Shown here one piece after another: positions 2,178 through 22,667 of a stretch of 25,949 bases of DNA. The notes beneath the pieces are model-generated. The model made no database searches. It saw nothing but the letters and a program-made list of their open reading frames with translations, and had not been told where the DNA came from. Position numbers and translations under genes: made by a program. The stretch is from the IMG/VR virus record IMGVR_UViG_3300032269_000111, positions 1-25,949 of that record. One strand, 5' to 3'. The stretch is from a virus. Taxonomy: Duplodnaviria > Caudoviricetes. The stretch's first letter is position 1, and each line of letters begins with the position of its first letter.

Positions 2178-2444
2178 TTAGGCTAGAGGCCCTCTAGACA
2201 TTAAGCCTTTGGTAGCCGCGCCAGTACCACGCATTTTGATACCGTCGGTTTTGATAGGTTCATCACCAGCGGATTTGCTGATATTTCCAATACTCATGTT
2301 GACTGTATCGGCTTTGCTGCGGTTTGGCATTTTGCCGGGATTGGGTTCAATACCTACAGCCTTACCAGACATATCATGTGGCGCAGCGTAAACAGCAGCA
2401 TTACCAACTTCTTTGCCCATGCGCTTATCGCTAAATTTAGCCAT
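2178..2444 (-). CDS. Small basic protein with C-terminal RGTGAATKG motif
   Basis: Tightly packed ORF; GAAAGG SD; motif related to the RADGxAxKG tails of upstream genes. Confidence 0.7.
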   Translation of the reverse strand: MAKFSDKRMGKEVGNAAVYAAPHDMSGKAVGIEPNPGKMPNRSKADTVNMSIGNISKSAGDEPIKTDGIKMRGTGAATKGLMSRGPLA

Positions 2445-2446
2445 GA

Positions 2447-2680
2447 TTAACCTTTCATGCCGGTTTTTTGATTGGCTACTTTAGCCATACCGCGACCCAT
2501 GCTCATCATGTCGTCATTGGTTTTACCGCCTTTGTGCATTTTAGCAACGCCGCCTTTTTTGAGTGTGAGCTTAGTGCCTACACCGCCTTGATGCTCTTGT
2601 TTGTCATGCTGTTTGAATGCTTTTTTGATTAAAGCAACATCTTGCTTTTTATCCATTGCATCTGATTCCATTTTTGCCAT
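2447..2680 (-). CDS. Small Lys/Met-rich protein with two xxGG motifs (LKKGG, MHKGG)
   Basis: AGGAG SD; tightly packed ORF. Confidence 0.75.
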   Translation of the reverse strand: MAKMESDAMDKKQDVALIKKAFKQHDKQEHQGGVGTKLTLKKGGVAKMHKGGKTNDDMMSMGRGMAKVANQKTGMKG

Positions 2681-2688
2681 GCTAACTC

Positions 2689-3078
2689 CTAAGTTACGCT
2701 TACCGTTACTGTACCAACAATTGTCGTTGCCACCAAGTAGTTTGGTGTCAGCGCTGCATCAAAACTGGACGAACCACCAACTGGATTCCAGCCCCACTGG
2801 ATGTCTCGTGAACCACCAGTCGAATTGCCTGCTGTGTTTACACCCGCTGTGTAGTAGGTTGTGTCCGTACGTGGATTCCTCAGAGCCTGCGGATCGTCCA
2901 CTGGGTACATTCCCAACTGCAACTGAGGGTGATCTGGATCCCAACAGGGCGGACAAACCAACAAGTTGTAGTTCTTAGTCTTGATGATCTCAGTCTTAAG
3001 AACCTTTAACTTGAACCGCTGACCACAGCGGTCACACTGAGCAATTGCGTTCTTGCCAGAAGCAAAACGATTAGCCAC
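2689..3078 (-). CDS. Putative Zn-binding protein (CDRC...CPPC)
   Basis: Two CxxC pairs followed by WDPDHPQL; GGAGG SD before a GTG start. Confidence 0.75.
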   Translation of the reverse strand: MANRFASGKNAIAQCDRCGQRFKLKVLKTEIIKTKNYNLLVCPPCWDPDHPQLQLGMYPVDDPQALRNPRTDTTYYTAGVNTAGNSTGGSRDIQWGWNPVGGSSSFDAALTPNYLVATTIVGTVTVSVT

Positions 3079-3080
3079 GA

Positions 3081-4025
3081 CTACCTCCCAATGTAGGTCT
3101 GTCTAGGAACCAAACGTAATGCTGCCTTCTCATGATCTTCATATGCAGCAAGCTCCCACGCCTCGTCATACTGGGACTTAAGGAATGGGATGCGCTCTGC
3201 GCCAGTTGGAATTTTTGCGGCGATGTAGTACGACAGGCCAGCCGCCATACAAGGGATGAACCTGAAAGGTACGTCCATGATGTTGACACCGCCGCCTGCG
3301 TCTTGGGTGCGTCGCAGACGCCAATATACAAATTGATAGGTCTGTACATTGTCTGGGGTAGGCCAAACGGTGAACGCGGGGACTTGCTGCCAATAGACGG
3401 TAGCCGCAGAGGTGTGTGCCGCTGCAATTGTGTTTTGTTGACCACGGAAACAGTTATTCAAAGTCCCAGATACAGCGTTTGTATTCTGCGTGATGTAACT
3501 GTAATTGATAATTTCGTTATCAATCTTTACAAACCCAGATGCGGGTAAACCCGTAACATCACTCAACACAATAGATGTACTCGTAGACGTAATTGTTGTA
3601 GTTAACGTAGCGGATATAGGGCTAGTCTGCCCGTTATAGCGCTGAATCCAAACTTGAATAGGTCTGGCCTGTTGAATTTTGTTGGGGATAGTAGCGTAGG
3701 TAGAAACGCTAATTCTAGTGATACTCAGATCAGCCTGAGTTGAGGCTACGTTGCCACCAGTACGGATAACGTGCTCAAGTAAATCAATGGTGTCGTCCGG
3801 TAGGGCATAAGTGTTTTGTCCCTGAACCAGAGTAATCGTGCCGGTTTCAATTGTCCACAAGTTGATGCCACGGTTCGCCCAGTCAGCAAACATGATGTTT
3901 AAACTGCGTCGGGCTGTGCGAAGATCATATCCGGTGCGAAGCTCACCGCCAGCGCGTTCAAACGCCTCCTCGACCAACTCAGTTAGGTCTAGGTTAAACG
4001 ACGATGCGCCGGAAGTATTTGCCAT
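3081..4025 (-). CDS. Putative head-tail connector/adaptor with an inserted beta-rich domain
   Basis: ELVEEAFERAG, ARRSLN.MFADWANRG.NLWT, WPTPD..Y and helical C-terminus; central insert LPASGFVKIDNEII.Y...CFRGQQNTIAAAH. Confidence 0.65.
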   Translation of the reverse strand: MANTSGASSFNLDLTELVEEAFERAGGELRTGYDLRTARRSLNIMFADWANRGINLWTIETGTITLVQGQNTYALPDDTIDLLEHVIRTGGNVASTQADLSITRISVSTYATIPNKIQQARPIQVWIQRYNGQTSPISATLTTTITSTSTSIVLSDVTGLPASGFVKIDNEIINYSYITQNTNAVSGTLNNCFRGQQNTIAAAHTSAATVYWQQVPAFTVWPTPDNVQTYQFVYWRLRRTQDAGGGVNIMDVPFRFIPCMAAGLSYYIAAKIPTGAERIPFLKSQYDEAWELAAYEDHEKAALRLVPRQTYIGR

Positions 4026-4261
4026 TATCTAAATCCTGCCGTTTTCTTTGCAATTATTTTAGGTTGAGCTACGAATTGCTTCCCTTTAGCTTTTCCAGCA
4101 CGTTTTGCACGTGTTGTCGCAGCGTACTCAGAAGAGCTGAGACTTTTAATCGCAGCTTTTGGAAGATATCTTTCACCAGTGTCAGAAGATTTTTTACCAC
4201 TTTTAGTTGTCCAATCTTGTTTACCCCAATCCTTTAGGGATTTTTGAGGTGTTTTAATCAC
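4025..4261 (-). CDS. Small basic protein, C-terminal half of a DUF5872-like domain
   Basis: GTG at 4261 overlaps the end of the upstream gene. QKSLKDW.KQDW.TK...RYLPK.A...K.KGKQFVAQP resembles DUF5872 as recalled. The track start at 4414 is probably too long. Confidence 0.7.
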   Translation of the reverse strand: MIKTPQKSLKDWGKQDWTTKSGKKSSDTGERYLPKAAIKSLSSSEYAATTRAKRAGKAKGKQFVAQPKIIAKKTAGFR

Positions 4262-5069
4262 GATAACCGCCACCCGCCGCTTTGTATTTCTTAGCCACCA
4301 ATTGAGCTTTGCGGGCTGACCATTGACCCGCCCCAGTTCCCTGCGTTGCTGCTGCTTTGACCTGAGACACAATGCGCTTACGCAATTCAGGCTTAGTGTA
4401 ATTGCCAGCAGCATTTACTCCGCCGCCCTCTTTCATGTAACCCATTTTGTTGCGCACTTCTGCAGGAAGCTTTGAGAGTCCAACATTGTCTTCTGGAACT
4501 TCTTTCAGTTCTCCGCCAGCAGCCATTTTCTTTGGTTTCTTTCCAGCCGCCTTCATCGCAATAGCGGTAGCAGCCTGTTTTGCAGAACCGCCATTTTTAA
4601 AAGTTTTGTTTAAAGCAACCATGAAGCGCTTGTCCAATGGTGATTTACTCATTGATGCGCCAAAAGTTGTGTCTTTGTCAAGGTTGCGGGTATATTCAGC
4701 CTTGACGCGATCCAAAGCAGCTTTTGTTCCTTGCCCACGCGCTCTGACTGCGGCAAGATCAGCACTGACATTAAGCTTAGACTGATCATCCAAAGGAATG
4801 TCGCCCGAAATGTTAGCGCCTACACGCTTGTAGTTTTTGTCTATGACAGCATGGGTTGGTTTAACGCTTAAACCATCATCTTTTGCGGGTTGGAGATTAA
4901 AATTTAAAGGTTCTTCTTTGACTTCGCTGCCTTCTTCTCCGCTGTACTTCTTGACCTTGCCGCCTTTTTTGTACATGGCGACTTTATTCGGATCATCCGT
5001 GCGGGTGATCTCCTTCTTACCGGGCATCTTTGACGGGTTTATGGCCCCCATGCCACGAGAAGCCATCAT
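4254..5069 (-). CDS. Modular xxGG-punctuated protein: basic leader, beta-barrel-like module, basic linkers, N-half of a DUF5872-like domain
   Basis: ATG at 5069 in ATGA overlap with the upstream stop; motifs YKKGG, FKNGG, MAAGG, MKEGG; ends YTKPELRKRI...GQWSARKAQLVAKKYKAAGGGYRD. Confidence 0.8.
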   Translation of the reverse strand: MMASRGMGAINPSKMPGKKEITRTDDPNKVAMYKKGGKVKKYSGEEGSEVKEEPLNFNLQPAKDDGLSVKPTHAVIDKNYKRVGANISGDIPLDDQSKLNVSADLAAVRARGQGTKAALDRVKAEYTRNLDKDTTFGASMSKSPLDKRFMVALNKTFKNGGSAKQAATAIAMKAAGKKPKKMAAGGELKEVPEDNVGLSKLPAEVRNKMGYMKEGGGVNAAGNYTKPELRKRIVSQVKAAATQGTGAGQWSARKAQLVAKKYKAAGGGYRD

Positions 5070-5569
5070 TTTTTGTACATCCCGCCGCCGCACATAACAA
5101 TAGTGCCTTTGGTTTTTCCGCGTTGAGCGCAACCATCGCCGCGCAATGATGCAGTCATACCGCCTTTTTTCATGCCTGCACCAGCAACACCCGTTGGATT
5201 TGAGCTATCCATATTTACAGGGCCGCTCATATCTTCATATTCATCAGAATTTTTAGACTTTTCATTTGCAACAGCGTCTTTGCCGCTTAAAGATTTGGCT
5301 GCTGCGCCTGCGCCTGCCGCACCTGCGGATCTCACAGCCATTCTGTTAATGGCGCGGTCTTCAGCTAATTCAACCGAACGCTTTGCTGCACCCCTTGCCT
5401 TTGTAGGTGGCGAGGTCAACTTTCTGAGATCGTCCATCACGCTGGCATTGCCTCTAAAAGAAGGCATATTGCTGTACTTAGTGCCGCTAACACTTGCGCC
5501 ACCACCGCCAGTATCTCTGCCTTCAAGAGGTGTTAAATCATCACCGCGTCTAGAATTGCTTGAGGCCAT
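5066..5569 (-). CDS. Low-complexity protein with MKKGG...RGDGCAQRGKTKG tail (candidate internal virion protein)
   Basis: ATG at 5569 just after the upstream TAA; shared C-terminal motif. Confidence 0.75.
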   Translation of the reverse strand: MASSNSRRGDDLTPLEGRDTGGGGASVSGTKYSNMPSFRGNASVMDDLRKLTSPPTKARGAAKRSVELAEDRAINRMAVRSAGAAGAGAAAKSLSGKDAVANEKSKNSDEYEDMSGPVNMDSSNPTGVAGAGMKKGGMTASLRGDGCAQRGKTKGTIVMCGGGMYKK

Positions 5570-5571
5570 GA

Positions 5572-6315
5572 TTAACAAATCCTTCCGCGTGTTTTGCCTT
5601 TGGTAGCAATACCATCTGCGCGTTTAGACGCAGATGACGTCATGCCGCCTGAAGCCATTTTTTTGACGGATCCGCCTTTTTTCATGCCTTGGCTTTCGCG
5701 ATACTCTCTTGGCGATTTAATCGTACTTGCGTAATCTCCGATAGCCCTAGGCACAGACATAAAAGCATCCGCTATAGCTTGACGATTTGCCATCTTTTCT
5801 TCATCAGTGGCATTTGGCGAATAATTTGTAGAAACTTTGGGTGCGCTTTTAAGTCTACTGCCAGCCTTTGCCAACATATCGTTTTGCGCATCAGACATAC
5901 CTGTAACATCTCTGCCAGCCTTTGCCAACATATCGTTTTGCGCATCAGACATACGTTTTGCTGAGAGTTTTAAGGAAGGCTTTGCGGCAGTCTTCTGTCT
6001 AGACCCGCCCATCACTGCAAGCGGATATGCATTTGCGGTTGTGTTATCCGCGCTAGTATCAGCACTTGAATCAGCACTTGAGCCAGATCTAAGAATTGCG
6101 TTTAAAACACCAGCATTGGTGTCATTAACTGCGTTTTGCCCGGGAGACATATTGCTGTTTACACGAGCCAATGTATCGCTATCATCAGACATCCTGCTGA
6201 CTCTGTTGGCGTTAGCCAATGCATCGTTGTCGCTTTGCCCTTGATTTTTCTGGGAAAGTTGATATCCCAAAGCGCCAAGTGCTGCCAACCCAGCCAAATC
6301 TTTAAGTTTTGCCAT
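5572..6315 (-). CDS. Ala/Ser-rich protein with hydrophobic N-terminus and MKKGG..MASGG..RADGIATKGKTRG tail (candidate ejection/pilot protein)
   Basis: LAGLAALGALGY N-terminal segment, AGGGG SD, shared tail motif. Confidence 0.75.
   Translation of the reverse strand: MAKLKDLAGLAALGALGYQLSQKNQGQSDNDALANANRVSRMSDDSDTLARVNSNMSPGQNAVNDTNAGVLNAILRSGSSADSSADTSADNTTANAYPLAVMGGSRQKTAAKPSLKLSAKRMSDAQNDMLAKAGRDVTGMSDAQNDMLAKAGSRLKSAPKVSTNYSPNATDEEKMANRQAIADAFMSVPRAIGDYASTIKSPREYRESQGMKKGGSVKKMASGGMTSSASKRADGIATKGKTRGRIC
5858..5954. repeat. Perfect 43-bp direct repeat x2, 54-bp period (5858-5900, 5912-5954)
   Basis: ctgccagcctttgccaacatatcgttttgcgcatcagacatac occurs twice; encodes MSDAQNDMLAKAG x2. Confidence 0.95.
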
Positions 6316-6329
6316 TTTTAACCCCTAGA

Positions 6330-6860
6330 TTAACAATATGCTTTGCCGCCCTTAGCGAGCATTTTGCCCTTGGTCTTGCCTTTAGTGGCAACACCGTCAG
6401 CACGAGCGGAAGCTGAACCGCCAGAAGCCATCTTCTTAGCAGCGCCACCTTTTTTCATCATCATTTGCTTTTTGTCCATAGCCATGTCAGCCTTAGAGCC
6501 TTCTTTCATGCCCTTCTTCTCAACATCTTTGCCAGACTTTTCAAAAGCAGCCATGCTCATTCCGCCTTTTTTCATGCCGTCTTTTTTCTTAGCCATCATT
6601 GCCATAAAGCCGGGGTTCATTTTTGTTGCCATACTGCCACCTTTTTTAAAGAGTTCCTGCTTACCTTGATTGGTTTTAGGATTGTTGATTGACTGGGAAT
6701 CTGCGCGTGTTTTAGGTGCGCTACCAAACTTCATGCCTTTACTGGCCTCGCTAAAGTCTTTGCCTACAGCCGTAGATACTCCAACTTTCTTTGCAAATGC
6801 TGGGTTATGGGCCACGGCATCCATAAAGGTCTTTTGTTTTTTACTTGTTGCTGGCATCAT
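6330..6860 (-). CDS. Lys/Met-rich basic protein with five xxGG motifs and RADGVATKGKTKG tail
   Basis: Likely start at ATG 6860 or 6857 (MMPATSKKQK), overlapping the upstream gene end; motifs FKKGG, MKKGG x2, MASGG, LAKGG. Confidence 0.8.
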   Translation of the reverse strand: MMPATSKKQKTFMDAVAHNPAFAKKVGVSTAVGKDFSEASKGMKFGSAPKTRADSQSINNPKTNQGKQELFKKGGSMATKMNPGFMAMMAKKKDGMKKGGMSMAAFEKSGKDVEKKGMKEGSKADMAMDKKQMMMKKGGAAKKMASGGSASARADGVATKGKTKGKMLAKGGKAYC

Positions 6861-7048: not shown

Positions 7049-7306
7049 TCAGCACTTCCATCTTGCTAAAGAAGCCGCCTTACGGGTAGGCTTACCTTTT
7101 TCATCTTTCATTGGGCCGGGCATACCAGACATACGAGCGCAGAATGACTTCTTACGTGGGCCGCCTTCAGGCTGTGGAGCTTTCAAGTTGCTTCCTGTTG
7201 CTGCGTTGTACTTGGCACGACCTTTGGCAGTCAAGCCCGCACCCTTAGATACTGGAAGCTTTTCACCGCGACCAACAGCTAGAGAGGGGCCTTTTTTCTT
7301 AGCCAT
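7049..7306 (-). CDS. Basic protein, DUF6321-like
   Basis: GLTAKGRAKYNAATGSNLKAP...RKKSFCARMSG...RWKC; ATG at 7306 overlaps the upstream gene end. Family name from memory. Confidence 0.7.
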   Translation of the reverse strand: MAKKKGPSLAVGRGEKLPVSKGAGLTAKGRAKYNAATGSNLKAPQPEGGPRKKSFCARMSGMPGPMKDEKGKPTRKAASLARWKC

Positions 7307-8329: not shown

Positions 8330-9241
8330 TTAGGACGAACCGGGAGAACCGAAGATTCCCAATGGATCAGACCAGCCAAAGCTGTAACGCTCGCGGGCTT
8401 TGTAACGGACGTTGCCGGTATCAAAGTCACCGTCCATGCTGTTAGCAAGGGGTGAACGAACGAAATGCTTCAGACCGTTAGGCACATCAGTAGTCAAATA
8501 CCAGCCGTTTGTGTCGGTCAGGTAATGGTTAATGGTGTAGCCTTCAGGGATAGAACCGTTGTTCTTCAACGCATTGATGTCGTTGTCGGTTGTACCAACA
8601 CGGAGGTTGGTTTCCAACAGGCGGGTAGCCACGAACTGCAATGCAGGGGGAACAATCAGCTTCTTAGGCTTAGCGGCGATCAACAAACCACGCTCGTCTG
8701 TCCAAGCGGCGATCTGAATGACTGCGTTTTCCAACGAAGTTTCATTCAAGTCAGCAGCAGTGGAGGGACGGTTGGAGTTGGTTCCACCAGAAACCAAGGG
8801 GTGAGCAGTGCTAAACAAAGCAACGCCGTCGCCGCCGGGATAAGCGGCAGAAAAGCCATTGTTGATGGTAGCAGCAGCTTTAACCTGCTTGGTATACGCC
8901 ATAGCACGAGCCAGACCTTTGGTGTAACGAGCAGACAAGCTGTCGTACAAGTTATCTTCAATCGCTTCTTCAGTGATTGAGAAACCCAAAGCAATGGTTT
9001 CATGGTTGTAGCGGGTAGTCCATGCCTCTTGAGCATTGTCATAAGCGATGGCAGAACCCTCGTTTTTGACAGGTGCGGCTGAGAAGCCAGACAGTTTGGT
9101 CTCTTCTTCAAAAGAACGCTCAGAAGTTTCGGTTTCGTACATCTCTTTATGTTCTTCACCATAACGAGCGTACTCCATGCCAAACAAAGCATTCAATCCG
9201 GGCAAGAGTTCTTTAAGTAGTTGTGCGCGTGAAATAGCCAT
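8330..9241 (-). CDS. Major capsid protein (Mu-like gpT family, HK97 fold)
   Basis: MAISRAQLLKELLPGLNALFG, TIALGFSITEEAIEDNLY, GDGVALFSTAHP, LIVPPALQF, DFDTGNVRYKARERYSFGWSDPLG; followed by a terminator. Confidence 0.92.
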   Translation of the reverse strand: MAISRAQLLKELLPGLNALFGMEYARYGEEHKEMYETETSERSFEEETKLSGFSAAPVKNEGSAIAYDNAQEAWTTRYNHETIALGFSITEEAIEDNLYDSLSARYTKGLARAMAYTKQVKAAATINNGFSAAYPGGDGVALFSTAHPLVSGGTNSNRPSTAADLNETSLENAVIQIAAWTDERGLLIAAKPKKLIVPPALQFVATRLLETNLRVGTTDNDINALKNNGSIPEGYTINHYLTDTNGWYLTTDVPNGLKHFVRSPLANSMDGDFDTGNVRYKARERYSFGWSDPLGIFGSPGSS

Positions 9242-10097: not shown

Positions 10098-10577
10098 TTA
10101 AGTACCTGTGCCAAATGTTACTTTTGACGAGCGTTCCGCGAACTTTGACATCCGTGGATCGTTGTCTTTCATGTAGGTGTTGTCTACCGACTCCATCTGC
10201 GCTTTGTTCTGGCGGGAGAAATGAGCCTCCCTTTGATCCATAAACTCAGCAGGAATTCGGCAAAGAATCAACCCACCAACTTCAATGTTGCCTTTGAAGC
10301 GCCCCTCATGGGAAGCATGCATCATCAGCTCCGGATACTCATCTGCCTTGCAGGGTTCGTACCCTTCTCTAAATTTAGATGAAATGTTCGATGGATCACT
10401 TGTTCCCAGTGTGCTGGTTCTTACCCAACGATGTGACCAACCGGGCCGATCATCGGGAGAGGGGAGGGCATCGGGTAAACGCCACGATGTTGGTCGTTGC
10501 ATTTCTTGACGAGCCTCAAGCTCACGGGGCTTGCGATTTGTCTTGTCAGACACTTGTACTTGATCCATGTTAAGCAT
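10098..10577 (-). CDS. Head-module hypothetical protein
   Basis: W..P..LPSP..RPGW.HRWVR...REGYEP...IEVGGLILCRIP; sits between scaffold and capsid genes; true start may be 10568. Confidence 0.8.
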   Translation of the reverse strand: MLNMDQVQVSDKTNRKPRELEARQEMQRPTSWRLPDALPSPDDRPGWSHRWVRTSTLGTSDPSNISSKFREGYEPCKADEYPELMMHASHEGRFKGNIEVGGLILCRIPAEFMDQREAHFSRQNKAQMESVDNTYMKDNDPRMSKFAERSSKVTFGTGT

Positions 10578-11535
10578 TCCTTCTTAAATTTGCTACCGCT
10601 TTCGCATACTCGTCTATAGGCACATTAAGCCGACGCGCAATGGTGGCTTGAGATGCTGATAGTTTTATGCGGACGGGAGGGGTGCTACGTGTAGCTGGAG
10701 CTACGACGGAAGCGGGTTTGGCGCGGCGAGGTGTTTCCTCATCCGATTCTGATGACTTATAAGAGGTGTCATCGTCCTCATGGCGCTGAGAATTAAAGTT
10801 CTCAGGAAATCTTTTGCGCATCGTTTTATCGATGGTTTGGAAGTACTCTTCAGTACCTGCATAGTCGTCACCATATTCCTTTTTCAGTTTCCTGTCAAGA
10901 CCCATAGCTGCCATTGTCATTTCTTCGTCTGAACCAAACCACGTAGAGTTGGCCTCAACCCATCGCTGGGTTCTAGGAGAAATATTTTGAGCGGGCTGTT
11001 GTGGAGCAGGTCTAAAAATTTCAGGCTCTTCAACTGGGCGCATTTGTTCTGCCCGGTCAATCCTGAGTGTTGCTTTTGTGATTTCCATTTGAGCGTCAGC
11101 CACGCCGTCAGAGTCGCCCGATTCATAGGCTTCCTTGTAGCGCTTCTTAGCTGCGTCTAGGGCCATGTGGGCGGTAGACTTGTTTTGCTCAATGAAAACT
11201 TCGCTGCCGTACTTGAGTTGCCCTTTTAAACGCTTGTTTTCCTCATAAACCTGCGATGCAAACTCTTCTGCCGCCAACCGTTCGCGCTCAGATCTCTCTT
11301 TGGCTCTGCGTTCATCGTGGTAACCACGCTTTAATTTTCCGACGCGTTCTTGTACATCTTTGCTGTACTGGGAAAGCTCTTCATCTTCTGGATCATTTAT
11401 AGGGCCAGAACTCTTCCTACCCCTATCTGCTGCCGGGGTGTCGTCTTCAATTTCTACCTCAAATTTTTCTTCCGAGGCTTTGGCTTCCTTTTCATCAGGA
11501 AACTCGTATGTATCGTTTTCAATTTGTGTTGCCAT
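10570..11535 (-). CDS. Putative capsid scaffolding protein
   Basis: Acidic N-terminus, long coiled coil, W...N.WFG, C-terminal KLSASQATIARRLNVPIDEYAK; lies between portal and capsid genes. Confidence 0.75.
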   Translation of the reverse strand: MATQIENDTYEFPDEKEAKASEEKFEVEIEDDTPAADRGRKSSGPINDPEDEELSQYSKDVQERVGKLKRGYHDERRAKERSERERLAAEEFASQVYEENKRLKGQLKYGSEVFIEQNKSTAHMALDAAKKRYKEAYESGDSDGVADAQMEITKATLRIDRAEQMRPVEEPEIFRPAPQQPAQNISPRTQRWVEANSTWFGSDEEMTMAAMGLDRKLKKEYGDDYAGTEEYFQTIDKTMRKRFPENFNSQRHEDDDTSYKSSESDEETPRRAKPASVVAPATRSTPPVRIKLSASQATIARRLNVPIDEYAKAVANLRRNA

Positions 11536-12148: not shown

Positions 12149-14623
12149 TTAACCTTTCTTAGGTTTGTTAGAAAATTGTTGCGACGCTATTTGGGATCGA
12201 TGTTTGGCTATTTCCACACCTAAGCGGGATCCATCCAATTCCATTTGTTTGTTTAAACGATCCTTGCTCTCAGCAGCTTTTGCCGATACTTGCATAGCAG
12301 CAATCTCTTTTTGAGCCTCAATACGAGACTGTTCAACGCGGATCTGATCGGCTTTGGCTGCTGCATCAATCTGTTGTTTTTGCTGCTTAAGCTGCAATTC
12401 GCCTTGCTTGATCTGAAGCTCTTGCATTTGCATCTGAACAATAGGATCTTGCATTTGTTGCTGAGCTTGTTGCTGTTGAGCCTGCTGGCTGTTTTGCTGG
12501 AAAATTTGCTGGGCTGCCTGTGCCGCCATAATGGCGATGTGATCTGCCACTTCCGCAGGGACTTGCTTGTTCTGATCTTCGGTTGGCAAGACAATTCCCA
12601 TGCGTTTTTCAATCTCAAGTCGGTACTGAAACCCGGTATGTTCATTAATGTGCGCAAGCATTGCAGCTTGAATCATTTGCGCTTGGGGGTTTTGAGCAAT
12701 GATTTGTGCAATCTTGGGATCTTGGATTGCCATCATGTGAACTTGGATGTGTGCTTCGTGATTTTGTTCCACGAAAGCCTTTACGCCTTTGCCCGTCAAA
12801 ACGTTTTGGTTTTCCTGAACCGGGTCGGTAGGAACTTGATCCTCTTCTGTCTTGACAAGCTTATTGGCATTTTTAATACCAAGGACCTCAATCATTTGAC
12901 GGTGCAACAAAGGCATGTCATACAACTGGGGTGCGCTTTGGGCTAACTGAAGAACCGCCTGATATTGAACAATCTTCTGCGCCATTGTTGAGGCATTGGG
13001 ATCGCTGACAGGTATAACATCTGTGCTGTCGTAATCAGATTTGCGGGCGGCTCGACTACCTTCTTCTGGCTGATAGTCATAATCTTCAGGCGCATAGTCA
13101 GCAATAATTACCTTTAAAAGCTTGAACTCTTGCTTCATTGAGAAGTGCATACGGGACTGAACTGCGCCCATAACTTTCAATGTTCTTTCCAGAATTGCCA
13201 GAGTTGTGCCTACAGGAGCCTGCGCAGACATGTCGGAGACATTCATATCCCCGCCGTTAGCAAAAGCTCGGCCTTCTTCTACGATATTTTGGAATAAAGC
13301 AAACAGAACCTGACTTGGTTCTTTGTAAGGCAGCGGCAGGATATTGTCTCGGATACTGCCGGACGGAACATCTACGTCTCTGAACTCTCCGGGTTGAATC
13401 GGCGTGTCATCGCCTTTGATGCGTAGACCGCGAGACTTAAGGCCCCCGGGTAAATTCGATAATGTTCCTGCGTCCACGAGTTGCCTAATAAGCATCGTAG
13501 CGGACTTTGCGTAACCTCCGATAAGGTGGATAAGACCATAACCATAGAATCCATCACCGGGGATGTATTGGTAATGGACGAAGTGCTGTCGTTTAATGTG
13601 AAGTTCATCTCCTTCATACCAATTTCTCCTTATTGAAAGAATTTCTGCGGTGCTTTTCTCAACTGTGATGACATAGGGCAAAGCAATACCTGTCTTCTCA
13701 CCCTTATCGTTTTTATGTTCAAAGCCCTTTAGGTCAATGTCTACGTGCATTTCAAGGATGCGATAGCGATCATCTTGAATAGCAGACATTCCGCTTTCTT
13801 CTGATTTCTGCTTTTCAATATCGTCAAGCTCATAGCCGGGGTCGCCAAGATCAACGTCTAGGTAAAAACCCGACTCCTGAAGCTTTAGAACTTCGTTCTT
13901 AGTCTTGCGCATTACATGGGTAACACGCTCTGAAGACTCAATATCCCTTGCGCCATAAGGAACAACTAAGTCCTCTGCGGGGATGAACACAGCCATCTGA
14001 CGGCCTCTTGATGGGTCGTAGTAAACCTTTTTAAAGGCCGAGCCGGTAATAGGCAAAGACCACAGCAGTTTTTCATGCTCGGGACGGTATTCAGTCATTA
14101 CTTCCGTCAACTGATAGTTCATGTCTTCCTGAACTCTTTGCGCAGCTTCTTCAGTCTGTGGAGTTTCTTTACCAATAATTTTTGTCTTTACAGGCCCCAT
14201 AGCTGGGAATGTCTCTGTAATACCTTCTGACTGAAACCTGACAACAGACTCGGTCAGCATTGGGTGAAATACACCGCAGGCTCCTTGCCAAGGTTCTGTA
14301 CGCTCTTCATAGCGTAGACCCAGAAGTTTTAAGCCTTCAACGTAGGTTTGAATCCAATCTCTGCGGTCTCGGGTATCTTTTTCAAAATCATCAACCAAGT
14401 CTGATGCCAAAGAATCAATATCAGATTCATCCATGTACTCTGCAAGATTTGCATCAAATGTTTCAGAGGTCTCCTCCTCTGGCTCCATGTAAATTTCAAG
14501 ATCTCCAATCCCAATATGCACCGACTTGGGATCCTCAATCTCAATCTCAATTGGAGATTCCATGCCTTGATCCATACCAAGAGGAGCTGCGTACAAACCC
14601 TTATCCATTGAACTTGTTGCCAT
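12149..14623 (-). CDS. Portal protein (long, P22-like, Gln-rich C-terminal coiled coil)
   Basis: 824 aa directly after terL; PWQGACGVFHP, GSAFKKVYYD, FYGYGLIHLIGG, QLVDAGTLSNLP; Q-rich tail. Confidence 0.88.
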   Translation of the reverse strand: MATSSMDKGLYAAPLGMDQGMESPIEIEIEDPKSVHIGIGDLEIYMEPEEETSETFDANLAEYMDESDIDSLASDLVDDFEKDTRDRRDWIQTYVEGLKLLGLRYEERTEPWQGACGVFHPMLTESVVRFQSEGITETFPAMGPVKTKIIGKETPQTEEAAQRVQEDMNYQLTEVMTEYRPEHEKLLWSLPITGSAFKKVYYDPSRGRQMAVFIPAEDLVVPYGARDIESSERVTHVMRKTKNEVLKLQESGFYLDVDLGDPGYELDDIEKQKSEESGMSAIQDDRYRILEMHVDIDLKGFEHKNDKGEKTGIALPYVITVEKSTAEILSIRRNWYEGDELHIKRQHFVHYQYIPGDGFYGYGLIHLIGGYAKSATMLIRQLVDAGTLSNLPGGLKSRGLRIKGDDTPIQPGEFRDVDVPSGSIRDNILPLPYKEPSQVLFALFQNIVEEGRAFANGGDMNVSDMSAQAPVGTTLAILERTLKVMGAVQSRMHFSMKQEFKLLKVIIADYAPEDYDYQPEEGSRAARKSDYDSTDVIPVSDPNASTMAQKIVQYQAVLQLAQSAPQLYDMPLLHRQMIEVLGIKNANKLVKTEEDQVPTDPVQENQNVLTGKGVKAFVEQNHEAHIQVHMMAIQDPKIAQIIAQNPQAQMIQAAMLAHINEHTGFQYRLEIEKRMGIVLPTEDQNKQVPAEVADHIAIMAAQAAQQIFQQNSQQAQQQQAQQQMQDPIVQMQMQELQIKQGELQLKQQKQQIDAAAKADQIRVEQSRIEAQKEIAAMQVSAKAAESKDRLNKQMELDGSRLGVEIAKHRSQIASQQFSNKPKKG

Positions 14624-14632
14624 TTTTAATCC

Positions 14633-16144
14633 TTAAACTGTGTAATACCGTTCGGTTCTACGGCCTTTGAAGTACCTAACTTCTTCCTGCTCATCTGAAT
14701 CTATTCCAATAAATCCGCCCTGCCGGTATCGAATCAATGCCTGACTTGTTGAGTCAACAAGGTCATCGTTGTCGCCATAGGGAAAAGCTGCAAGTTCTTC
14801 CATCAACTCATCAGCCCAGCGGGTTTCTGGACACCAGACCACGCCAGATGCAAACAGGTCTGATATTGCGTTTACACGCGCTATCTTATCGTTTCCTTTG
14901 CTTGGTGTGAACTCTTGTAAAGGGATTCCCATCATCCGAAGCTCATATATCAACGGAGCGCCAGCGGCTTTCTTCTCAATAATCAATGTGTCCGGATTCC
15001 ATTCTTTCCACATCTCCAAAGCTTTCTGTTTTAGCTCTGGAAACTCCATACGCTGTTTAAACGAATCCAAGACAATGATGTTGGGCTTCAAATTACCCTG
15101 CGCATCAGGATGCTGAAACACTCCCCACGTGGTGCAAGCTGAATAATCTGCGCGGTTATTCTTTTCAAAGGCGGTATCCCAGCTTTGGATTAAGTAATCA
15201 CAGGAAGGTGGAGTCTCTTCGGTCCAAATACTCCACATATCACGCTTAATGATGGCGCTTTCGTTGCCTGTTGGGTTTTGTTGGTACTGCGCTTCCCATT
15301 TAGCGGCAGGAATCTCAGCTTTAATTGCTTCAAGCTCTTCTTTTTTCCAGAATCCGGGCCATAAAGGAGTTCCAGAAGGCAAAATTGCAGGAAATTCAAT
15401 GATTTCCCAGTCGTTTACACCTTCTTTTTCAGAATTCTTAAGGATCTGCCCGGTCAGATCTCGTTTAGACCAACGAGTCATCACAATAATAATGGCTCCA
15501 CCGGGCTGTAGACGCTGGCGAGGGCCAGATGTGTACCACTCATACACACCATCAAACACTGCGGGGTTGTTTTGTCTTGCTTCTTGCTCAGAATGAGGAT
15601 CGTCAATGATTAATACATCTGCGCCTTTACCAGTAACAGCGCCACCAACACCAATAGCAAAGTAATCTCCACCTGCGTCGGTGTTCCATCGTCCTGCGGC
15701 CTTTGAATCGGACGATAACTTTGTATCAAAGATCTTTGAATACGCCTCAGACGAAACAAGATTCCTAACCTTGCGTCCAAATCCAACAGCCAACTCTGCG
15801 GTGTGGGCAGTCTGAATGATCTTCTTTGCAGGGTTTTTACCTAAGAACCATGATGGCAACAGATATGACGCAAACTCTGATTTTGTATGCCGGGGAGGCA
15901 TGTTTATGATCAAACGCTTAAGATCCCCAGAAGCAACACGCTCAAAAGCATCTGCCATGATCTGATGGTGTTTACCCGAAATAAACCCGGGCCACATCTG
16001 CGTAACAAAGTATAGGTAGTTCTCCCTACAACGCTCAACCCTATCTAGTTCCAACAACCTGTACACCTTGTTTCTTTCAGCTTCAGGCAATGTATCTACT
16101 ATGGACAAATACTCTCCTATTTCTGACTTAGTCAACAAAGTCAC
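14633..16144 (-). CDS. terL: Terminase large subunit
   Basis: Walker A-like MPPRHTKS, Walker B IIDDP, coupling motif MTRW, YQQNP, RNase H-like nuclease SWDTA...IEKKAAG...DDLVDS. Confidence 0.95.
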   Translation of the reverse strand: MTLLTKSEIGEYLSIVDTLPEAERNKVYRLLELDRVERCRENYLYFVTQMWPGFISGKHHQIMADAFERVASGDLKRLIINMPPRHTKSEFASYLLPSWFLGKNPAKKIIQTAHTAELAVGFGRKVRNLVSSEAYSKIFDTKLSSDSKAAGRWNTDAGGDYFAIGVGGAVTGKGADVLIIDDPHSEQEARQNNPAVFDGVYEWYTSGPRQRLQPGGAIIIVMTRWSKRDLTGQILKNSEKEGVNDWEIIEFPAILPSGTPLWPGFWKKEELEAIKAEIPAAKWEAQYQQNPTGNESAIIKRDMWSIWTEETPPSCDYLIQSWDTAFEKNNRADYSACTTWGVFQHPDAQGNLKPNIIVLDSFKQRMEFPELKQKALEMWKEWNPDTLIIEKKAAGAPLIYELRMMGIPLQEFTPSKGNDKIARVNAISDLFASGVVWCPETRWADELMEELAAFPYGDNDDLVDSTSQALIRYRQGGFIGIDSDEQEEVRYFKGRRTERYYTV

Positions 16145-16371
16145 AAGGAAGCCATTTCTTTAACACTGCGATCCACAATCTTTATCGAATGGAACTTATG
16201 TGGCTTAGTCGTCAAGAATCCATCAGATTGCAATCTATGGATGATCCTATGGATATTAGCTTTTGACTTCATACCAAGACCTTTGGCAATAACTTCGTAA
16301 GACGGAGCTATGCCGTGAATACGTATGTAAGCCTTAATGAAATCTAAAACAAGTTGTCTGCGTTCAGTCAT
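16141..16371 (-). CDS. Stand-alone LexA N-terminal-type winged-HTH protein (no peptidase domain)
   Basis: MTERRQLVLDFIKAYI..HG.APSY..IA..LG.KSKANIHRII..L...GFL is the LexA DNA-binding pattern; GTGA overlap with terL. Confidence 0.8.
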   Translation of the reverse strand: MTERRQLVLDFIKAYIRIHGIAPSYEVIAKGLGMKSKANIHRIIHRLQSDGFLTTKPHKFHSIKIVDRSVKEMASL

Positions 16372-18884: not shown

Positions 18885-18922
18885 ACCAACTGCTAGTGAA
18901 ATGCGTTATACTTTCACTAGCA
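18878..18922 (+). promoter_or_regulatory. Putative early promoter P2 (CGTGTAAAC-N15-TGCGT-TATACT) inside an 11-bp inverted repeat
   Basis: TGCTAGTGAAA (18891-18901) and TTTCACTAGCA (18912-18922) flank the -10 hexamer. Confidence 0.65.
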
Positions 18923-18942
18923 TCAACAAACCGAAAGAAATC

Positions 18943-19530
18943 ATGACTAATTTTCAAACCCGTGAAGAGTGGCTACAAGCTGGTGTTAATGAGTTGCGCA
19001 CCAGCTTTGACATGATCAGCAAGCCCCTGCCCAAAAAGATACGTGTCGCCTGCGGTTTCCCCTTGAATGCTAAGCGCAGTAAAGCTATCGGCGAGTGCTG
19101 GGCATCTGACAATTCTGCTGACAAAGCCATTGAAATTCTGATCAGCCCCACCATCGCAGACCCCGTTGATGTATTCGCAGTGCTGGTGCATGAGTTATGC
19201 CATGCCACTGCTGGTGCAATGAATCACGGCATCAACTTTCAAAAAGCCGCCACTGCTATGTTGATTGAACCCTGCGGTGACCCTGCACAAAAAAATGCGT
19301 GGAAATCCACCCGTGGCACAAAGAACTTTGCATCAGCCTACAGCGATTTGATCGCAAGCTTGGGCGCATACCCTCACGGCGAATTGTCCTACTCTGACCG
19401 CAAGGTGCAGGGTACACGCATGATTAAGGCATCCTGCCCCGCCTGTGGTTATACAGTGCGACTCACTGCTAAGTGGGGGGCGAAGGGTCTCCCGATCTGC
19501 CCGACTGATGGCGAAACCTTTAACATTTAA
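18943..19530 (+). CDS. SprT-like Zn metalloprotease with C-terminal Cys cluster
   Basis: VLVHELCH (HEXXH), downstream HG..F, C-terminal CPACGY.VR....W...G.P.CP; GAAAG SD before ATG 18943. Confidence 0.82.
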   Translation: MTNFQTREEWLQAGVNELRTSFDMISKPLPKKIRVACGFPLNAKRSKAIGECWASDNSADKAIEILISPTIADPVDVFAVLVHELCHATAGAMNHGINFQKAATAMLIEPCGDPAQKNAWKSTRGTKNFASAYSDLIASLGAYPHGELSYSDRKVQGTRMIKASCPACGYTVRLTAKWGAKGLPICPTDGETFNI

Positions 19531-19545
19531 CGTGAAAGAATCATT

Positions 19546-21039
19546 ATGGCTAAAAACGACATTCAACATTTCGCAATTGAAATCAGCCGCCTTGGCAGTG
19601 CAAGGATCAACGGCGCATTTCAAGCCGCCTACAGTGAAACGCCACTTGATGCAAAATCTGCAATTGAGCGATTAGCACATTCGGTTGTTTTTGGATCTTT
19701 GACAATGGATGAGATCCGATCCTCTGCGCCGATACAAGTCACTGCCCCTGCGCCATCCTACGTGCCGTCTGCCCCCGCTGATGCCCCCGCTGTCAAGGCA
19801 CTTGAAGCCACTGTAGGGCGATCAATGGATACCGCCCTTGAAGCAAACAGCCTTGCGCTAAACGTCAAGCAGGGGTTGAATGATTTAGCCAACAGGGTTA
19901 GCACTGTGGCAGATATAAGCATTGAGATGGGCGATAAGCTGGTCAAGCTTGAACGATCCATAAACCAAAAGATTGGCGAGGTAAAGGGCGAGGTTGACCC
20001 TGCCGCCCTGCAATTGCAAGTTGCCAAGGCTGTGGCTGATACCTTTGCCCCGTTTAAACAGGCTACGCAACCCGAAATGATGACAGTATTTGCTGAGGAT
20101 GCAGGGGTTTACGTGACTGAAACCAAGTCGGTGCGTGATGTATTCGGTGTTGACGCACGTGACGTTCATGGCAATGTGCTGACTGTGGACTTGTGGAACC
20201 ATCCAAATGCCCCTGCGATTGACCCCAATTTTATTTGGACTGCGCCGATCTTGCGTCAGTTGCTATTGTCTCAATCAACGGGCGAACACTTGTGGTTCGG
20301 TGGCGAAAAGGGTACGGGTAAGAGCGAAACAGCCCGTCAATTTGCCGCCCGCACGGGTCGCAATTACGTGCGGATCAACTTCCACAAATACACCACAGCA
20401 GAGGATTATTTGGGCGCAGTGGGCTTGGTCAACGGCGAGACAGTGTTTCAGTCAAAGGATTTTCTGATGGCTTACACCTCACCTAGCACAGTGATTCTGT
20501 TGGATGAGGTGACCAACGCTGATGCTGGTGAGTTAGCCCCGCTGAATGGTTTCCTTGAACCCAACAGCGCAGTGTCCTATGGTGGTGCTGTGCGCCGTAA
20601 AGCCAACGGGGTGCTGGTGTTTGCCGCTGATAACACCTTGGGTAATGGCGATGACTCAGGACGATACGCTGGTACACGCACCATGAACAGCGCACTAGTT
20701 GATCGCTTTGCCCGTATCGTTCACTTTGAGTATTTGCCCTTGGCGCAAGAGGTCGAGGCTGTGGTGCGCCATACGGGTTGCAATGAGGATCTTGCAAGGC
20801 ACGTGCTGAAAGCCGTCCATGTCGCCCGATCCAAGGTTAGCACGGGCGATATCGTGGATGCCCCATCTATCCGCTCAGTGATCGGTTTTATTCGGGCATT
20901 GGCAGTGCTGAATGTCGATACCGCATGGGCGAGTGCAGTGGTAAACCGCCAACCAGCAGAATCCCACGCCGCATTGGCGAGTGTCTTTGCCGCTTGCATT
21001 GACCCTGACTACATCAACAAACAATTGGGAGGTGTTTAA
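19546..21039 (+). CDS. MoxR/CbbQ/CobS-like AAA+ ATPase with N-terminal coiled coil
   Basis: Walker A GEKGTGKS, Walker B ILLDE, AADNTLGNG, YAGT..MNSALVDRF, PSIRS. Confidence 0.9.
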   Translation: MAKNDIQHFAIEISRLGSARINGAFQAAYSETPLDAKSAIERLAHSVVFGSLTMDEIRSSAPIQVTAPAPSYVPSAPADAPAVKALEATVGRSMDTALEANSLALNVKQGLNDLANRVSTVADISIEMGDKLVKLERSINQKIGEVKGEVDPAALQLQVAKAVADTFAPFKQATQPEMMTVFAEDAGVYVTETKSVRDVFGVDARDVHGNVLTVDLWNHPNAPAIDPNFIWTAPILRQLLLSQSTGEHLWFGGEKGTGKSETARQFAARTGRNYVRINFHKYTTAEDYLGAVGLVNGETVFQSKDFLMAYTSPSTVILLDEVTNADAGELAPLNGFLEPNSAVSYGGAVRRKANGVLVFAADNTLGNGDDSGRYAGTRTMNSALVDRFARIVHFEYLPLAQEVEAVVRHTGCNEDLARHVLKAVHVARSKVSTGDIVDAPSIRSVIGFIRALAVLNVDTAWASAVVNRQPAESHAALASVFAACIDPDYINKQLGGV

Positions 21040-21041
21040 AC

Positions 21042-22667
21042 ATGAAATCTTTTTACAAAGGTTATGAGGTTCGCAAGGCTGTGCAAACCCTTGGCTACAA
21101 AGTCTGCACATACCTTAACTTGCGTCAAGTAAAGATCGGTTGGAACAGCGGTATTCAAACCGCCTGTATCAACGCAAAGGGTGTAATTTGGCTTGCTGAT
21201 CTTGCCGATGATGCAGTGGTCAGCCGTGCTGTATTCGAGGATTACTGCGGGTATGTGGTGCATGAGTTGTTGCACCGCAAATATACTGACTTTAGTGTGC
21301 GTGGCGATACCCCCTACCTTGCCCGCCTGCACAATGCGGTCGAGGATGTATGGATTGAACGCATGGCTGTTAAGGTTAAGTTGACAGGCAACATTGAAGC
21401 CCTGTTGTCCAACCTCATCAACGGCATGATCGACAAGGCTTTTGAAGCCAAAATCGATTGGGCTGATCCCCTGCAATACCCGTTTGTCTTTGCCGCCTAT
21501 GGTCGCCACTATGCCAAGCGTGTTCCCCTTGCGCAGGGTCTAAAGCCCATCTTTGATAAGGCATCCTTGATGATTGATGATTGCGTGTCCAGCACCCATA
21601 CCCTGCAAGTGGCTAAGTGGATCATGGATCAACTGAAAAGCTTAGATGATGATGGTCAAGGCGATGGGTCTGAGACCGATCAGGACGGGCAGAAAGAGGG
21701 GGAAAATGGCAAGGGTGAGGGTCAGGGTCAAGGCGAGGGTGAAAGCCCCTCTGATGGCGATGCTGATGGTAGTGGCGAGGGTGCTGGCGATGAGCAAGGC
21801 GAGGGCGAGGGTGTAGGCAAAGCCTCTGCGCCTGATGAGCAGTCCGATCCCGTCGAGGTCGAGCCCACCAATAAAGCCCCCGAAGACTGCGGCGGGTCGG
21901 GTTCCTACTGTGAGCAATCAGGCACTTGCAGTGCTGATGACCACGCAAGCTTGAACAACCGCCCCGATCCACGTTTCACAATCCCATCAACTGTCCCCGC
22001 CAAGTTGCGTTATGAAGTCAAACGCTTATTTGAAAACTCAGGCTTGTCTGAATTCCAACGCAACCGCAAAGCAGGGTCGATCAACGTCCATGCCCTGCCA
22101 ACAGTGGCGATGGGTAGTGACCGCCTGTTTAAACGTAGACAGGAAACTGAGGGCATTGACAGCGCAGTGGTTATTGTGCTGGATGTATCGGGGTCGATGT
22201 TTGAGGATTATGGCAACCCTGATGCAGAGCGCATGAGTGCCGCCATTCAGACAACCGCCGCCCTGCTGGATACTTTGAATCGTGCTGGTGTTGCGACTTG
22301 CGTCCTGACATTTGGCGATGAGACCGCCATCCTCAAGCCGTGGGATATGAATGTCAAAAGAGCAAATGAATTACTGCCCCGCATCGAAACAGGCGGTGGG
22401 TCGAATGATTACTTTGCGATTCGATATGGTCACGGGCTGTTGTTGCAACGCACCGAACAGCGCAAGGTTATGTTTGTGGTCACCGATGGCGATGGTCACA
22501 GATCCTACGCAAGGGAGCAAGCCAAGGTTGGCGAGCGACTTGGTATCACCACCATTGGGGTCGGGATACAACACGATGTGTCGGGTGTTTACACAAACAA
22601 CGTACACGTTAAGACAATTGCAGATCTTGGGTCTGCATCATTTAAGCAAATCAAACTAGCCGCATAA
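21042..22667 (+). CDS. CobT-like protein: HEXXH domain, acidic Gly-rich linker, C-terminal VWA domain
   Basis: HELLH..YT, N.VED.WIE, D/E/G linker, MIDAS LDVSGSM, VVTDGDG, IGVGI. Confidence 0.88.
   Translation: MKSFYKGYEVRKAVQTLGYKVCTYLNLRQVKIGWNSGIQTACINAKGVIWLADLADDAVVSRAVFEDYCGYVVHELLHRKYTDFSVRGDTPYLARLHNAVEDVWIERMAVKVKLTGNIEALLSNLINGMIDKAFEAKIDWADPLQYPFVFAAYGRHYAKRVPLAQGLKPIFDKASLMIDDCVSSTHTLQVAKWIMDQLKSLDDDGQGDGSETDQDGQKEGENGKGEGQGQGEGESPSDGDADGSGEGAGDEQGEGEGVGKASAPDEQSDPVEVEPTNKAPEDCGGSGSYCEQSGTCSADDHASLNNRPDPRFTIPSTVPAKLRYEVKRLFENSGLSEFQRNRKAGSINVHALPTVAMGSDRLFKRRQETEGIDSAVVIVLDVSGSMFEDYGNPDAERMSAAIQTTAALLDTLNRAGVATCVLTFGDETAILKPWDMNVKRANELLPRIETGGGSNDYFAIRYGHGLLLQRTEQRKVMFVVTDGDGHRSYAREQAKVGERLGITTIGVGIQHDVSGVYTNNVHVKTIADLGSASFKQIKLAA

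Follow-up and report, generated by a model that had tools for sequence, protein, structure and literature searches.

In adenovirus and African swine fever virus (ASFV), basic core proteins and polyproteins are cut at Gly-Gly-containing sites during maturation, by the adenovirus protease and by pS273R, respectively. To our knowledge, maturation without a head protease is the usual description for short-tailed phages such as T7 and P22. The head proteases of T4, phiKZ and SPN3US cut after Glu (accessible text of PMC9026906 and PMC7411985), and those of the T4 type remove targeting propeptides of 10–19 residues (accessible text of PMC9026906). Processing has also been described or proposed for other phage proteins: P22 gp7 is cut by the host enzyme OpdA, giving the new N-terminus K-G-G-K-G (accessible text of PMC8402733), and self-processing was proposed for polyvalent proteins with a zincin MPTase (accessible text of PMC5512222). 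Here we compare with these systems a block of small basic proteins (positions 2178–6860) in a 25,949-nucleotide stretch of viral DNA, IMG/VR record IMGVR_UViG_3300032269_000111 (the window, meaning the whole stretch analysed), in which a hydrophobic-x-x-Gly-Gly motif (GG motif) recurs and several proteins end in a common C-terminal tag.

At the level of sequence, the block has a modular build, with the GG motif at seams between modules, the tag on unrelated bodies, conservation at the protein level in relatives, and further motif copies in two proteins of the ejection region. The explanation we prefer, for which we consider the case evenly balanced, is a T4-like scheme of loading then cutting, in which the C-terminal tag would be the address and the GG seam the place of cutting. 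We infer that the small basic, block-built proteins would be packed into the phage head via the tag, that the motif at their joints would be cut, freeing each block, and that the released basic peptides would condense DNA or be injected; the protease would come either from the phage, in which case its fold is unrecognised, or from the host. The genes of the block and its surroundings, named below by their lower coordinate, are:

2178–2444, minus strand: 88-residue basic protein without the GG motif; C-terminal tag variant RGTGAATKG at ~2205–2231, a variant lying 8 residues from the end in 26 relatives
2447–2680, minus strand: 77-residue basic protein; LKKGG (2549–2563) and MHKGG (2525–2539) between two small modules
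2689–3078, minus strand: 129-residue conserved CxxC protein adjoining the adaptor gene; motif-free
3081–4025, minus strand: head-tail adaptor-like protein with a weak SU10_adaptor match; motif-free
4025–4261, minus strand: stand-alone basic module, phrog_14910; probable GTG start at 4261; motif absent here and in 11/11 relatives
4254–5069, minus strand: 271-residue five-block protein; RGMG leader, YKKGG (4959–4973), FKNGG (4587–4601), MAAGG (4512–4526), MKEGG (4422–4436) and a phrog_17747 module
5066–5569, minus strand: 167-residue protein; variable body, MKKGG (5159–5173), C-terminal tag (5105–5143) and MCGGG (5081–5095)
5572–6315, minus strand: 247-residue protein; variable body, MKKGG (5671–5685), MASGG (5644–5658) and C-terminal tag (5584–5622), three residues before the stop
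6330–6860, minus strand: 176-residue protein; N-terminal MPxxS module (phrog_16759), motifs at 6636, 6561, 6444, 6417 and 6345, and C-terminal tag (6366–6404)
7049–7306, minus strand: stand-alone DUF6321 basic module; motif-free, with GG at the equivalent of the gene start in fused relatives

Abundance and form of the GG motif

An earlier note on this DNA, made from the letters alone, had listed 15 copies of a [MFYL]-x-x-G-G motif in five open reading frames (ORFs) of a feature at 2178–6860. All 15 are present, and the five genes that carry the motif are on the minus strand; gene 2178 at the edge of the feature is motif-free, and the C-terminal tag had been overlooked. The window count compares with a mean of 1.9 in pooled residue shuffles (maximum 9 in 20,000) and of 4.65 in shuffles keeping GG runs (maximum 14). 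Since the pattern was picked on the window, held-out loci were used for the test: the capsid-adaptor interval of 80 relatives, which share ancestry and hence are not independent draws, holds 328 matches in 307 basic ORFs, against 55 in shuffles (maximum 75) and 121 with GG runs kept (maximum 152). A composition artefact, a concern the note itself had raised, is ruled out by the two shuffle types, both exceeded in the window and in the held-out loci, and conservation of the motif in homologs, on which the note had also staked its proposal, is seen at the protein level.

A fossil or internal ribosome-binding site, with the K-G-G codons resembling a Shine-Dalgarno sequence, was likewise ruled out, the first Gly being GGA in 4 of 243 motifs. 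Near the ends of genes 4254 and 5066 (window 4262–4280 and 5070–5095), the GG codons form runs rich in G shortly before the start codon of the next, overlapping gene, and some C-terminal GG copies may double as ribosome-binding sites.

An unbiased logo of all 562 GG sites reads [MFY]-[AK]-x-G-G-x-[VAT], with 1.04 bits for the hydrophobic residue three positions before GG. Met, Phe and Tyr at this −3 position thus survive from the original pattern, Leu is minor (5%), and Ala is found as well as Lys at −2. The note had not seen the Lys-flanked form of the motif in capsid, portal or terminase; the strict form has 0 matches in these proteins of relatives, whereas the plain pattern is present in the window's capsid (1), portal (1) and terminase (2), and loose-pattern matches in the capsid and terminase of relatives stand at fixed conserved places. 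Whole-genome counts show no enrichment in most named relatives, only ctpbd312 being raised (16 versus 8.3), and CRP-901 has 2 motifs versus 7.5 expected in the 38 kb fetched; the signal in named relatives is a few well-placed copies. The distant relative ctpbd312 (L205) encodes a 449-residue protein near the capsid gene with nine motif copies (32302–33651) and, between terminase and portal, an 890-residue motif-bracketed protein (41151–43823).

The motif at module joints

The block encodes small basic proteins built from swappable parts, and the distribution of the motif follows their joining. At related capsid loci, 46 of 49 DUF6321 ORFs are motif-free, the remaining three being two fusions and one short leader. 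Among 120 longer DUF6321 homologs, we retained 114 N-terminal fusions (two C-terminal extensions and four apparently mis-called starts were dropped); GG stands at the joint in 114/114, as the canonical motif in 105. Behind the RGMG leader of gene 4254 comes the motif in 32/32 relatives, and the modules that come next are of at least five kinds. In the same gene, the final module is preceded by the motif in each of the 21 fusions shown, no more than 20 residues from the anchor in 18 of them, and the sole stand-alone copy lacks it; two modules found only stand-alone have it in 0/11 and 0/6. Because fused modules have the motif and stand-alone modules do not, the motif tracks joints. The DUF6321 fusions, the RGMG leader and the modules of 4254 agree with the boundary position that the earlier note had assigned to the motif, which on this sequence evidence behaves like a seam between blocks and not like a label on every protein.

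A shared C-terminal tag

Genes 5066, 5572 and 6330 share a C-terminal tag composed of GG, a Ser-rich spacer and then R-[AG]-D-G-[CIV]-A-x-[KR]-G-K-T-[KR]-G, and the C-terminus of gene 2178 is a variant of it without the GG motif. The tag ends three residues before the stop in 40 of 47 proteins; one to three genes are tagged in 26 of the 36 loci that span the block, and no gene is tagged in the other 10. A profile of the tag matched 8,161 protein clusters (50% identity) at E ≤ 0.001 and 2,802 at E ≤ 1e-10. In the best 150 profile matches, the tag is present in 148, behind GG in 148/148 and exactly three residues before the stop in 136/148, and the 137 bodies that carry it fall into 99 clusters. 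Such a pattern makes the tag a possible loading address; co-folding of the tag with scaffold, the 10098 protein and capsid gave a score of 0.02. In gene 5572, a tandem duplication of ~17 residues (SDAQNDMLAKAG, window 5860–5960) is a sign of a rapidly changing body.

The combinatorial nature of the block also bears on a distinctly unlikely alternative, in which the GG motif would be a flexible hinge and a short stretch of DNA homology for block shuffling, with neither enzyme nor receptor involved. Such a role would fit with GG being a natural turn, with the highly combinatorial build of the block and with the near-identical 14-nucleotide stretch that the three window tags have in common. A hinge has, however, no need for the hydrophobic residue at −3, and GG is invariant in 41/41 aligned tags even as synonymous codons vary: identity is 39% at third codon positions versus 82% at the other two (the pattern had selected the invariant residues, but not the synonymous variety).

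Glu at the corresponding joints of T4-like and phiKZ-like phages

The DUF6321 and MPxxS modules also occur in T4-like cyanophages and phiKZ-like phages. In 7/7 T4-like cyanophages (fetched out of 485 records matched), a Glu stands 2–3 residues before the start of DUF6321, and hydrophobic-x-x-GG is absent from those proteins. S-CAM4 gp113 and the fusion P0123 align over two identically ordered modules (E = 1e-10), Glu occupying the seams in S-CAM4, and S-CREM1 gp179 has Glu at residue 10; in phiKZ gp165.1 and phiPA3 gp316, the MPxxS module is followed by S-x-E. The MPxxS module of gene 6330 is moreover N-terminal in the virion structural proteins of phrog_22033 and phrog_25121. By analogy, GG seams would do in the HTVC023P-like family what Glu sites do in T4-like heads; no cut of cyanophage DUF6321 proteins is reported in the searchable literature.

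T4-like cyanophages also encode long Lys-rich polyproteins made of the same modules with many Glu seams (L193 185–2704, L195 1739–2776, L197 1334–2698). Two of the three adjoin terminase genes, and they look like unrecognised internal head proteins.

Ejection-region proteins, tape measure proteins and crAss cargo

Neither distal tail genes nor ejection genes are in the window, and relatives were used for both. In these, a nozzle-like gene is followed by E1, a GNAT-sized gene, E2, E3 and a very large E4; we assign the roles of E1–E4 from position, an SLT domain and LPD38, and the labels scaffold, nozzle and GNAT are likewise putative. The strict motif is found in E1 (72/79 proteins, 143 copies versus 28 shuffled) and in E2/E3 (65/119 proteins, 92 versus 34), which are fused or separate and carry an internal motif in 14/16 long forms; it is rare in the nozzle-like protein (3/58) and E4 (3/36) and occurs in 0/62 GNAT-sized proteins. 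Cultured HTVC023P, Pag-Yong1, HMO-2011 and Caulobacter phage RW, the last of which also has the E1 domain, have the motif at places of this kind, and the fetched part of CRP-901 does not.

These results bear on a further alternative, that the small basic proteins are not virion cargo but work within the infected cell, with DNA or ribosomes as possible targets, the motif of the ejection proteins being a separate matter. Their bodies are variable and seemingly low-complexity, and we found no direct virion data for the HTVC023P-like family in the literature searched, which leaves room for such a role. We nevertheless consider it very improbable: the genes sit on the structural strand, flanked by those for capsid and adaptor; database entries for homologous modules name them as virion structural proteins; and the motif is common to ejection-region proteins.

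The terminal domain of E1 (G-P-G..S-D..G-E-F-V), directly preceded by the motif, matches the mycobacteriophage gp16 tape measure protein (8ZDO chain S, E = 0.0012). As a self-cutting module this domain was not upheld: its monomer model is poor (pLDDT 54), and motif co-occurrence, in 10 annotated genomes, is suggestive but partial and drawn from too small a sample. The HTVC023P gp79 domain, used as a query against five relatives, gave no match even in two where the domain can be seen, which makes it an insensitive search, and homology of the E1 domain to the portal-bound part of crAss001 gp45 was not found.

The latter protein, cargo protein C1 of crAss001, is proven in virions, with resolved segments 214–245 and 425–552 (accessible text of PMC10172136; PDB 7QOG). 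It has repeated AxGG-type sites, and those at ~210/260 and 560 bracket the segments so reported, which fits fragments; the accessible text mentions neither the motif nor cleavage, proteolysis or a protease. Lambda gpH, a cleaved protein, contains FATGG (733) and YATGG (778); cleavage behind FATGG would release 12.2 kDa, only roughly compatible with the ~14 kDa reported. In the bolder proposal given below, the GG seam might also account for unmapped cuts in tape measure proteins of the lambda type and in crAss cargo. A further gpH site, MRDGG at 842–846 (L092), lies inside residues 818–849, resolved bound to gpI in virions (accessible text of PMC12617516), and is thus an intact docked GG, perhaps by coincidence.

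Candidate proteases

The search for an enzyme, and for a reader of the tag, involved the following late genes:

8330–9241, minus strand: major capsid protein, 64% identical to the HTVC023P capsid
10098–10577, minus strand: 159-residue conserved protein, phrog_36003, between the scaffold and capsid genes; examined as a protease candidate
10570–11535, minus strand: probable scaffold, acidic, assigned from position and composition; candidate reader of the tag
12149–14623, minus strand: portal protein
14633–16144, minus strand: terminase large subunit

No family match to a prohead protease of the gp21 or assemblin type was found in the window proteins or in 62 proteins of complete relatives, nor a Pfam match to a cysteine protease of the adenovirus/ASFV clan in the window or the scanned proteins of relatives, and the five window motif proteins match no peptidase family. 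In the 62 selected proteins, Pfam returned an S74 tail chaperone, a single weak Tox-MPTase4 and, in just one genome, an early M20/M28-like gene, and HExxH is not in the motif-bearing E1 and fused E2/E3 proteins inspected in complete relatives. The window capsid matches PHROGs labelled 'protease' over their C-terminal part.

The 10098 protein found no support as a prohead protease: its AlphaFold2 model, at pLDDT 76, has a best VIA Z of 4.0 and is without a Foldseek match at E ≤ 0.001, though it may represent a new fold. It matched only unnamed viral clusters in the ESM Atlas, and a homolog is present in CRP-901, with its unenriched 38 kb. Its model has a confident small alpha/beta core without a PDB match, and at least 2,607 homologs are known to us, with a conserved motif-like E-x-G-G-L-x-L stretch. 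By analogy with OpdA, it is possible that a host enzyme cuts at the seams.

Weighing cleavage against docking

Several observations weigh against loading followed by cutting. No seam cut has been demonstrated in any phage considered, and virion presence of the modules comes from database labels on homologs in RaK2, GAP32 and 121Q. A protease common to the complete relatives was not found by Pfam in the 62 selected proteins; HExxH occurs in E4 of 4/5 complete genomes and of 20/41 mostly truncated ones, and is not in HTVC023P gp83. The Glu site behind MPxxS is less clear in GAP32 and RaK2, with none in Eowyn, and as the seven T4-like phages are related, their Glu seam represents one or few events, not seven. 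Of 297 motifs, 30 are no more than 5 residues from the C-terminus, and 9 residues is the spacing met most often, so that cutting such copies would yield trivial fragments; a binding repeat would suit them. Finally, the portal-bound gp45 segment 425–552 (accessible text of PMC10172136) contains GG at 427 and 447, and sites within a resolved segment look uncut after GG, which fits either intact docking or a cut before Ala 425.

The last two points favour an uncleaved docking peptide, in which the GG motif would bind scaffold, portal or the capsid interior, its repeats adding avidity, and together with the tag would load the prohead. Residues conserved on both sides of GG, confinement of the motif to likely internal proteins and the need of P22 ejection proteins for scaffold in loading (accessible text of PMC8402733) suit docking as well. 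We nonetheless think docking unlikely: a motif serving as address would leave the motif-free stand-alone modules, whose relatives gain it at fusion joints, unpackaged, and the equivalent joints of T4-like phages carry Glu. Between the cleavage and docking signals that the earlier note had offered together, the data lean to a cleavage seam for GG, because stand-alone modules lack it, and the possible address is the separate C-terminal tag.

Genome context

The window is assigned from its genes to an HTVC023P-like phage, a member of an abundant aquatic family. Its minus-strand late region encodes terminase, portal, GroES, a probable scaffold, capsid and two adaptor-like proteins, and has the order terminase-portal-GroES-scaffold-10098-9254-capsid of HTVC023P-like and CRP-901-like phages, with the same arrangement around the capsid gene; capsid identity is 64% to Pelagibacter phage HTVC023P, 71% to Pag-Yong1 and 55% to CRP-901. 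The ORFs of the motif block abut or overlap each other and have homologs in relatives. An estimated ~14,000 IMG/VR stretches fit the capsid patterns, and, among sequencing runs, one DNA run was found to contain the sequence, at 0.92.

Other features of the window are an early plus-strand cluster of SprT-like, MoxR/CobS-like AAA ATPase and VWA/CobT-like genes (18901–22667) and a protein with a LexA DNA-binding domain between the terminase small and large subunit genes (16141–16371). In several relatives, an unrelated gene of 247–250 residues is inserted just before the DUF6321 gene (L009 12879–13622, L016 12121–12864, L054 11002–11754). The capsid N-terminus is copied at the start of small basic proteins in HTVC023P (gp50 MAITRGQISKQ versus capsid MAISRSQLVKE; L081 26536–26676) and CRP-901 (gp63 MNRASFGKLM versus capsid MAMNRANFAKML; L082 14606–14740), possibly another route into the head.

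Comparison with known systems

The feature is real, widespread and apparently undescribed in the searchable literature, which excludes most subscription journals: no account of the motif, of the tag or of a function for DUF6321 was found there. In their accessible text, PMC12014285 treats no member of the phage family and PMC9599517 says nothing pertinent about such a motif or a protease. A bolder proposal than loading and cutting alone, which we regard as tentative and somewhat unlikely, is an undescribed head-maturation code spread widely among phages of podovirus type, whose C-terminal tag would load thousands of unrelated small proteins and whose unrecognised protease would cut those and the ejection proteins at seams. 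If true, a Gly-Gly code across HTVC023P-like, HMO-2011-like and crAss-like phages would change the picture of maturation without a head protease and point to an unknown enzyme. The tag, which could serve, like the T4 targeting sequence, for loading proteins into phage heads, would unite upwards of 8,000 protein clusters, all of them unnamed in the library searched, as candidates for head cargo, and cultured members of the phage family exist.

Adenovirus and ASFV, the parallel first proposed in the earlier note, prove a loose fit: the basic proteins with Gly-Gly-containing sites are alike, whereas here the hydrophobic residue is at −3, one position further from GG than in the quoted consensus (two before GG), no such cysteine protease was detected in the proteins scanned, and those are viruses of eukaryotes. 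P22 is similar in that a host enzyme processes an ejection protein of a podovirus beside a Gly-Gly, and in its gene order, a GNAT-sized gene (gp14, which we take to be a GNAT) and then three ejection genes. Its gp7 differs in a single N-terminal cut at a site outside hydrophobic-x-x-GG, and the E2 profile scores −26 bits against gp7, with no detectable homology. The crAss001 C1 protein is likewise virion cargo in which repeated AxGG-type sites bracket resolved segments, but no sequence homology to the E1 domain was found and one resolved segment spans GG sites (accessible text of PMC10172136). As in polyvalent proteins, E4 of relatives carries LPD38 (3/5 scanned) and often HExxH; E4 is, in contrast, mostly motif-free (3/36), HExxH is not universal, and glycine goes unmentioned in the accessible main text of PMC5512222. 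Tape measure C-terminal regions offer the domain that mycobacteriophage gp16 has in common with E1, where the motif directly precedes it, and FATGG/YATGG in a cleaved protein (lambda gpH), but the domain lies outside this window and the lambda mass is only roughly compatible.

A further likeness is to T4, with its capsid-targeting sequence (CTS) and gp21 acting on IPI-III and Alt, and to the phiKZ and SPN3US proteases: small, basic, variable proteins with a short terminal peptide and a motif at junctions, and homologous DUF6321 and MPxxS modules that have Glu at the joint there. The T4 CTS is an N-terminal propeptide of 10–19 residues, whereas the shared peptide here is C-terminal and of ~25 residues, and only 19 of 297 motifs are found in the first 10 residues or so of a protein, within 10 of its N-terminus; gp21 sites end in Glu, whereas the junctions here have GG in 114/114 fusions; and the window phage has a podovirus-type gene set in which no gp21-like protease was detected. 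The system in this window thus resembles the load-and-cut system of T4 in outline and stands outside it by the position of its tag and the chemistry of its sites.

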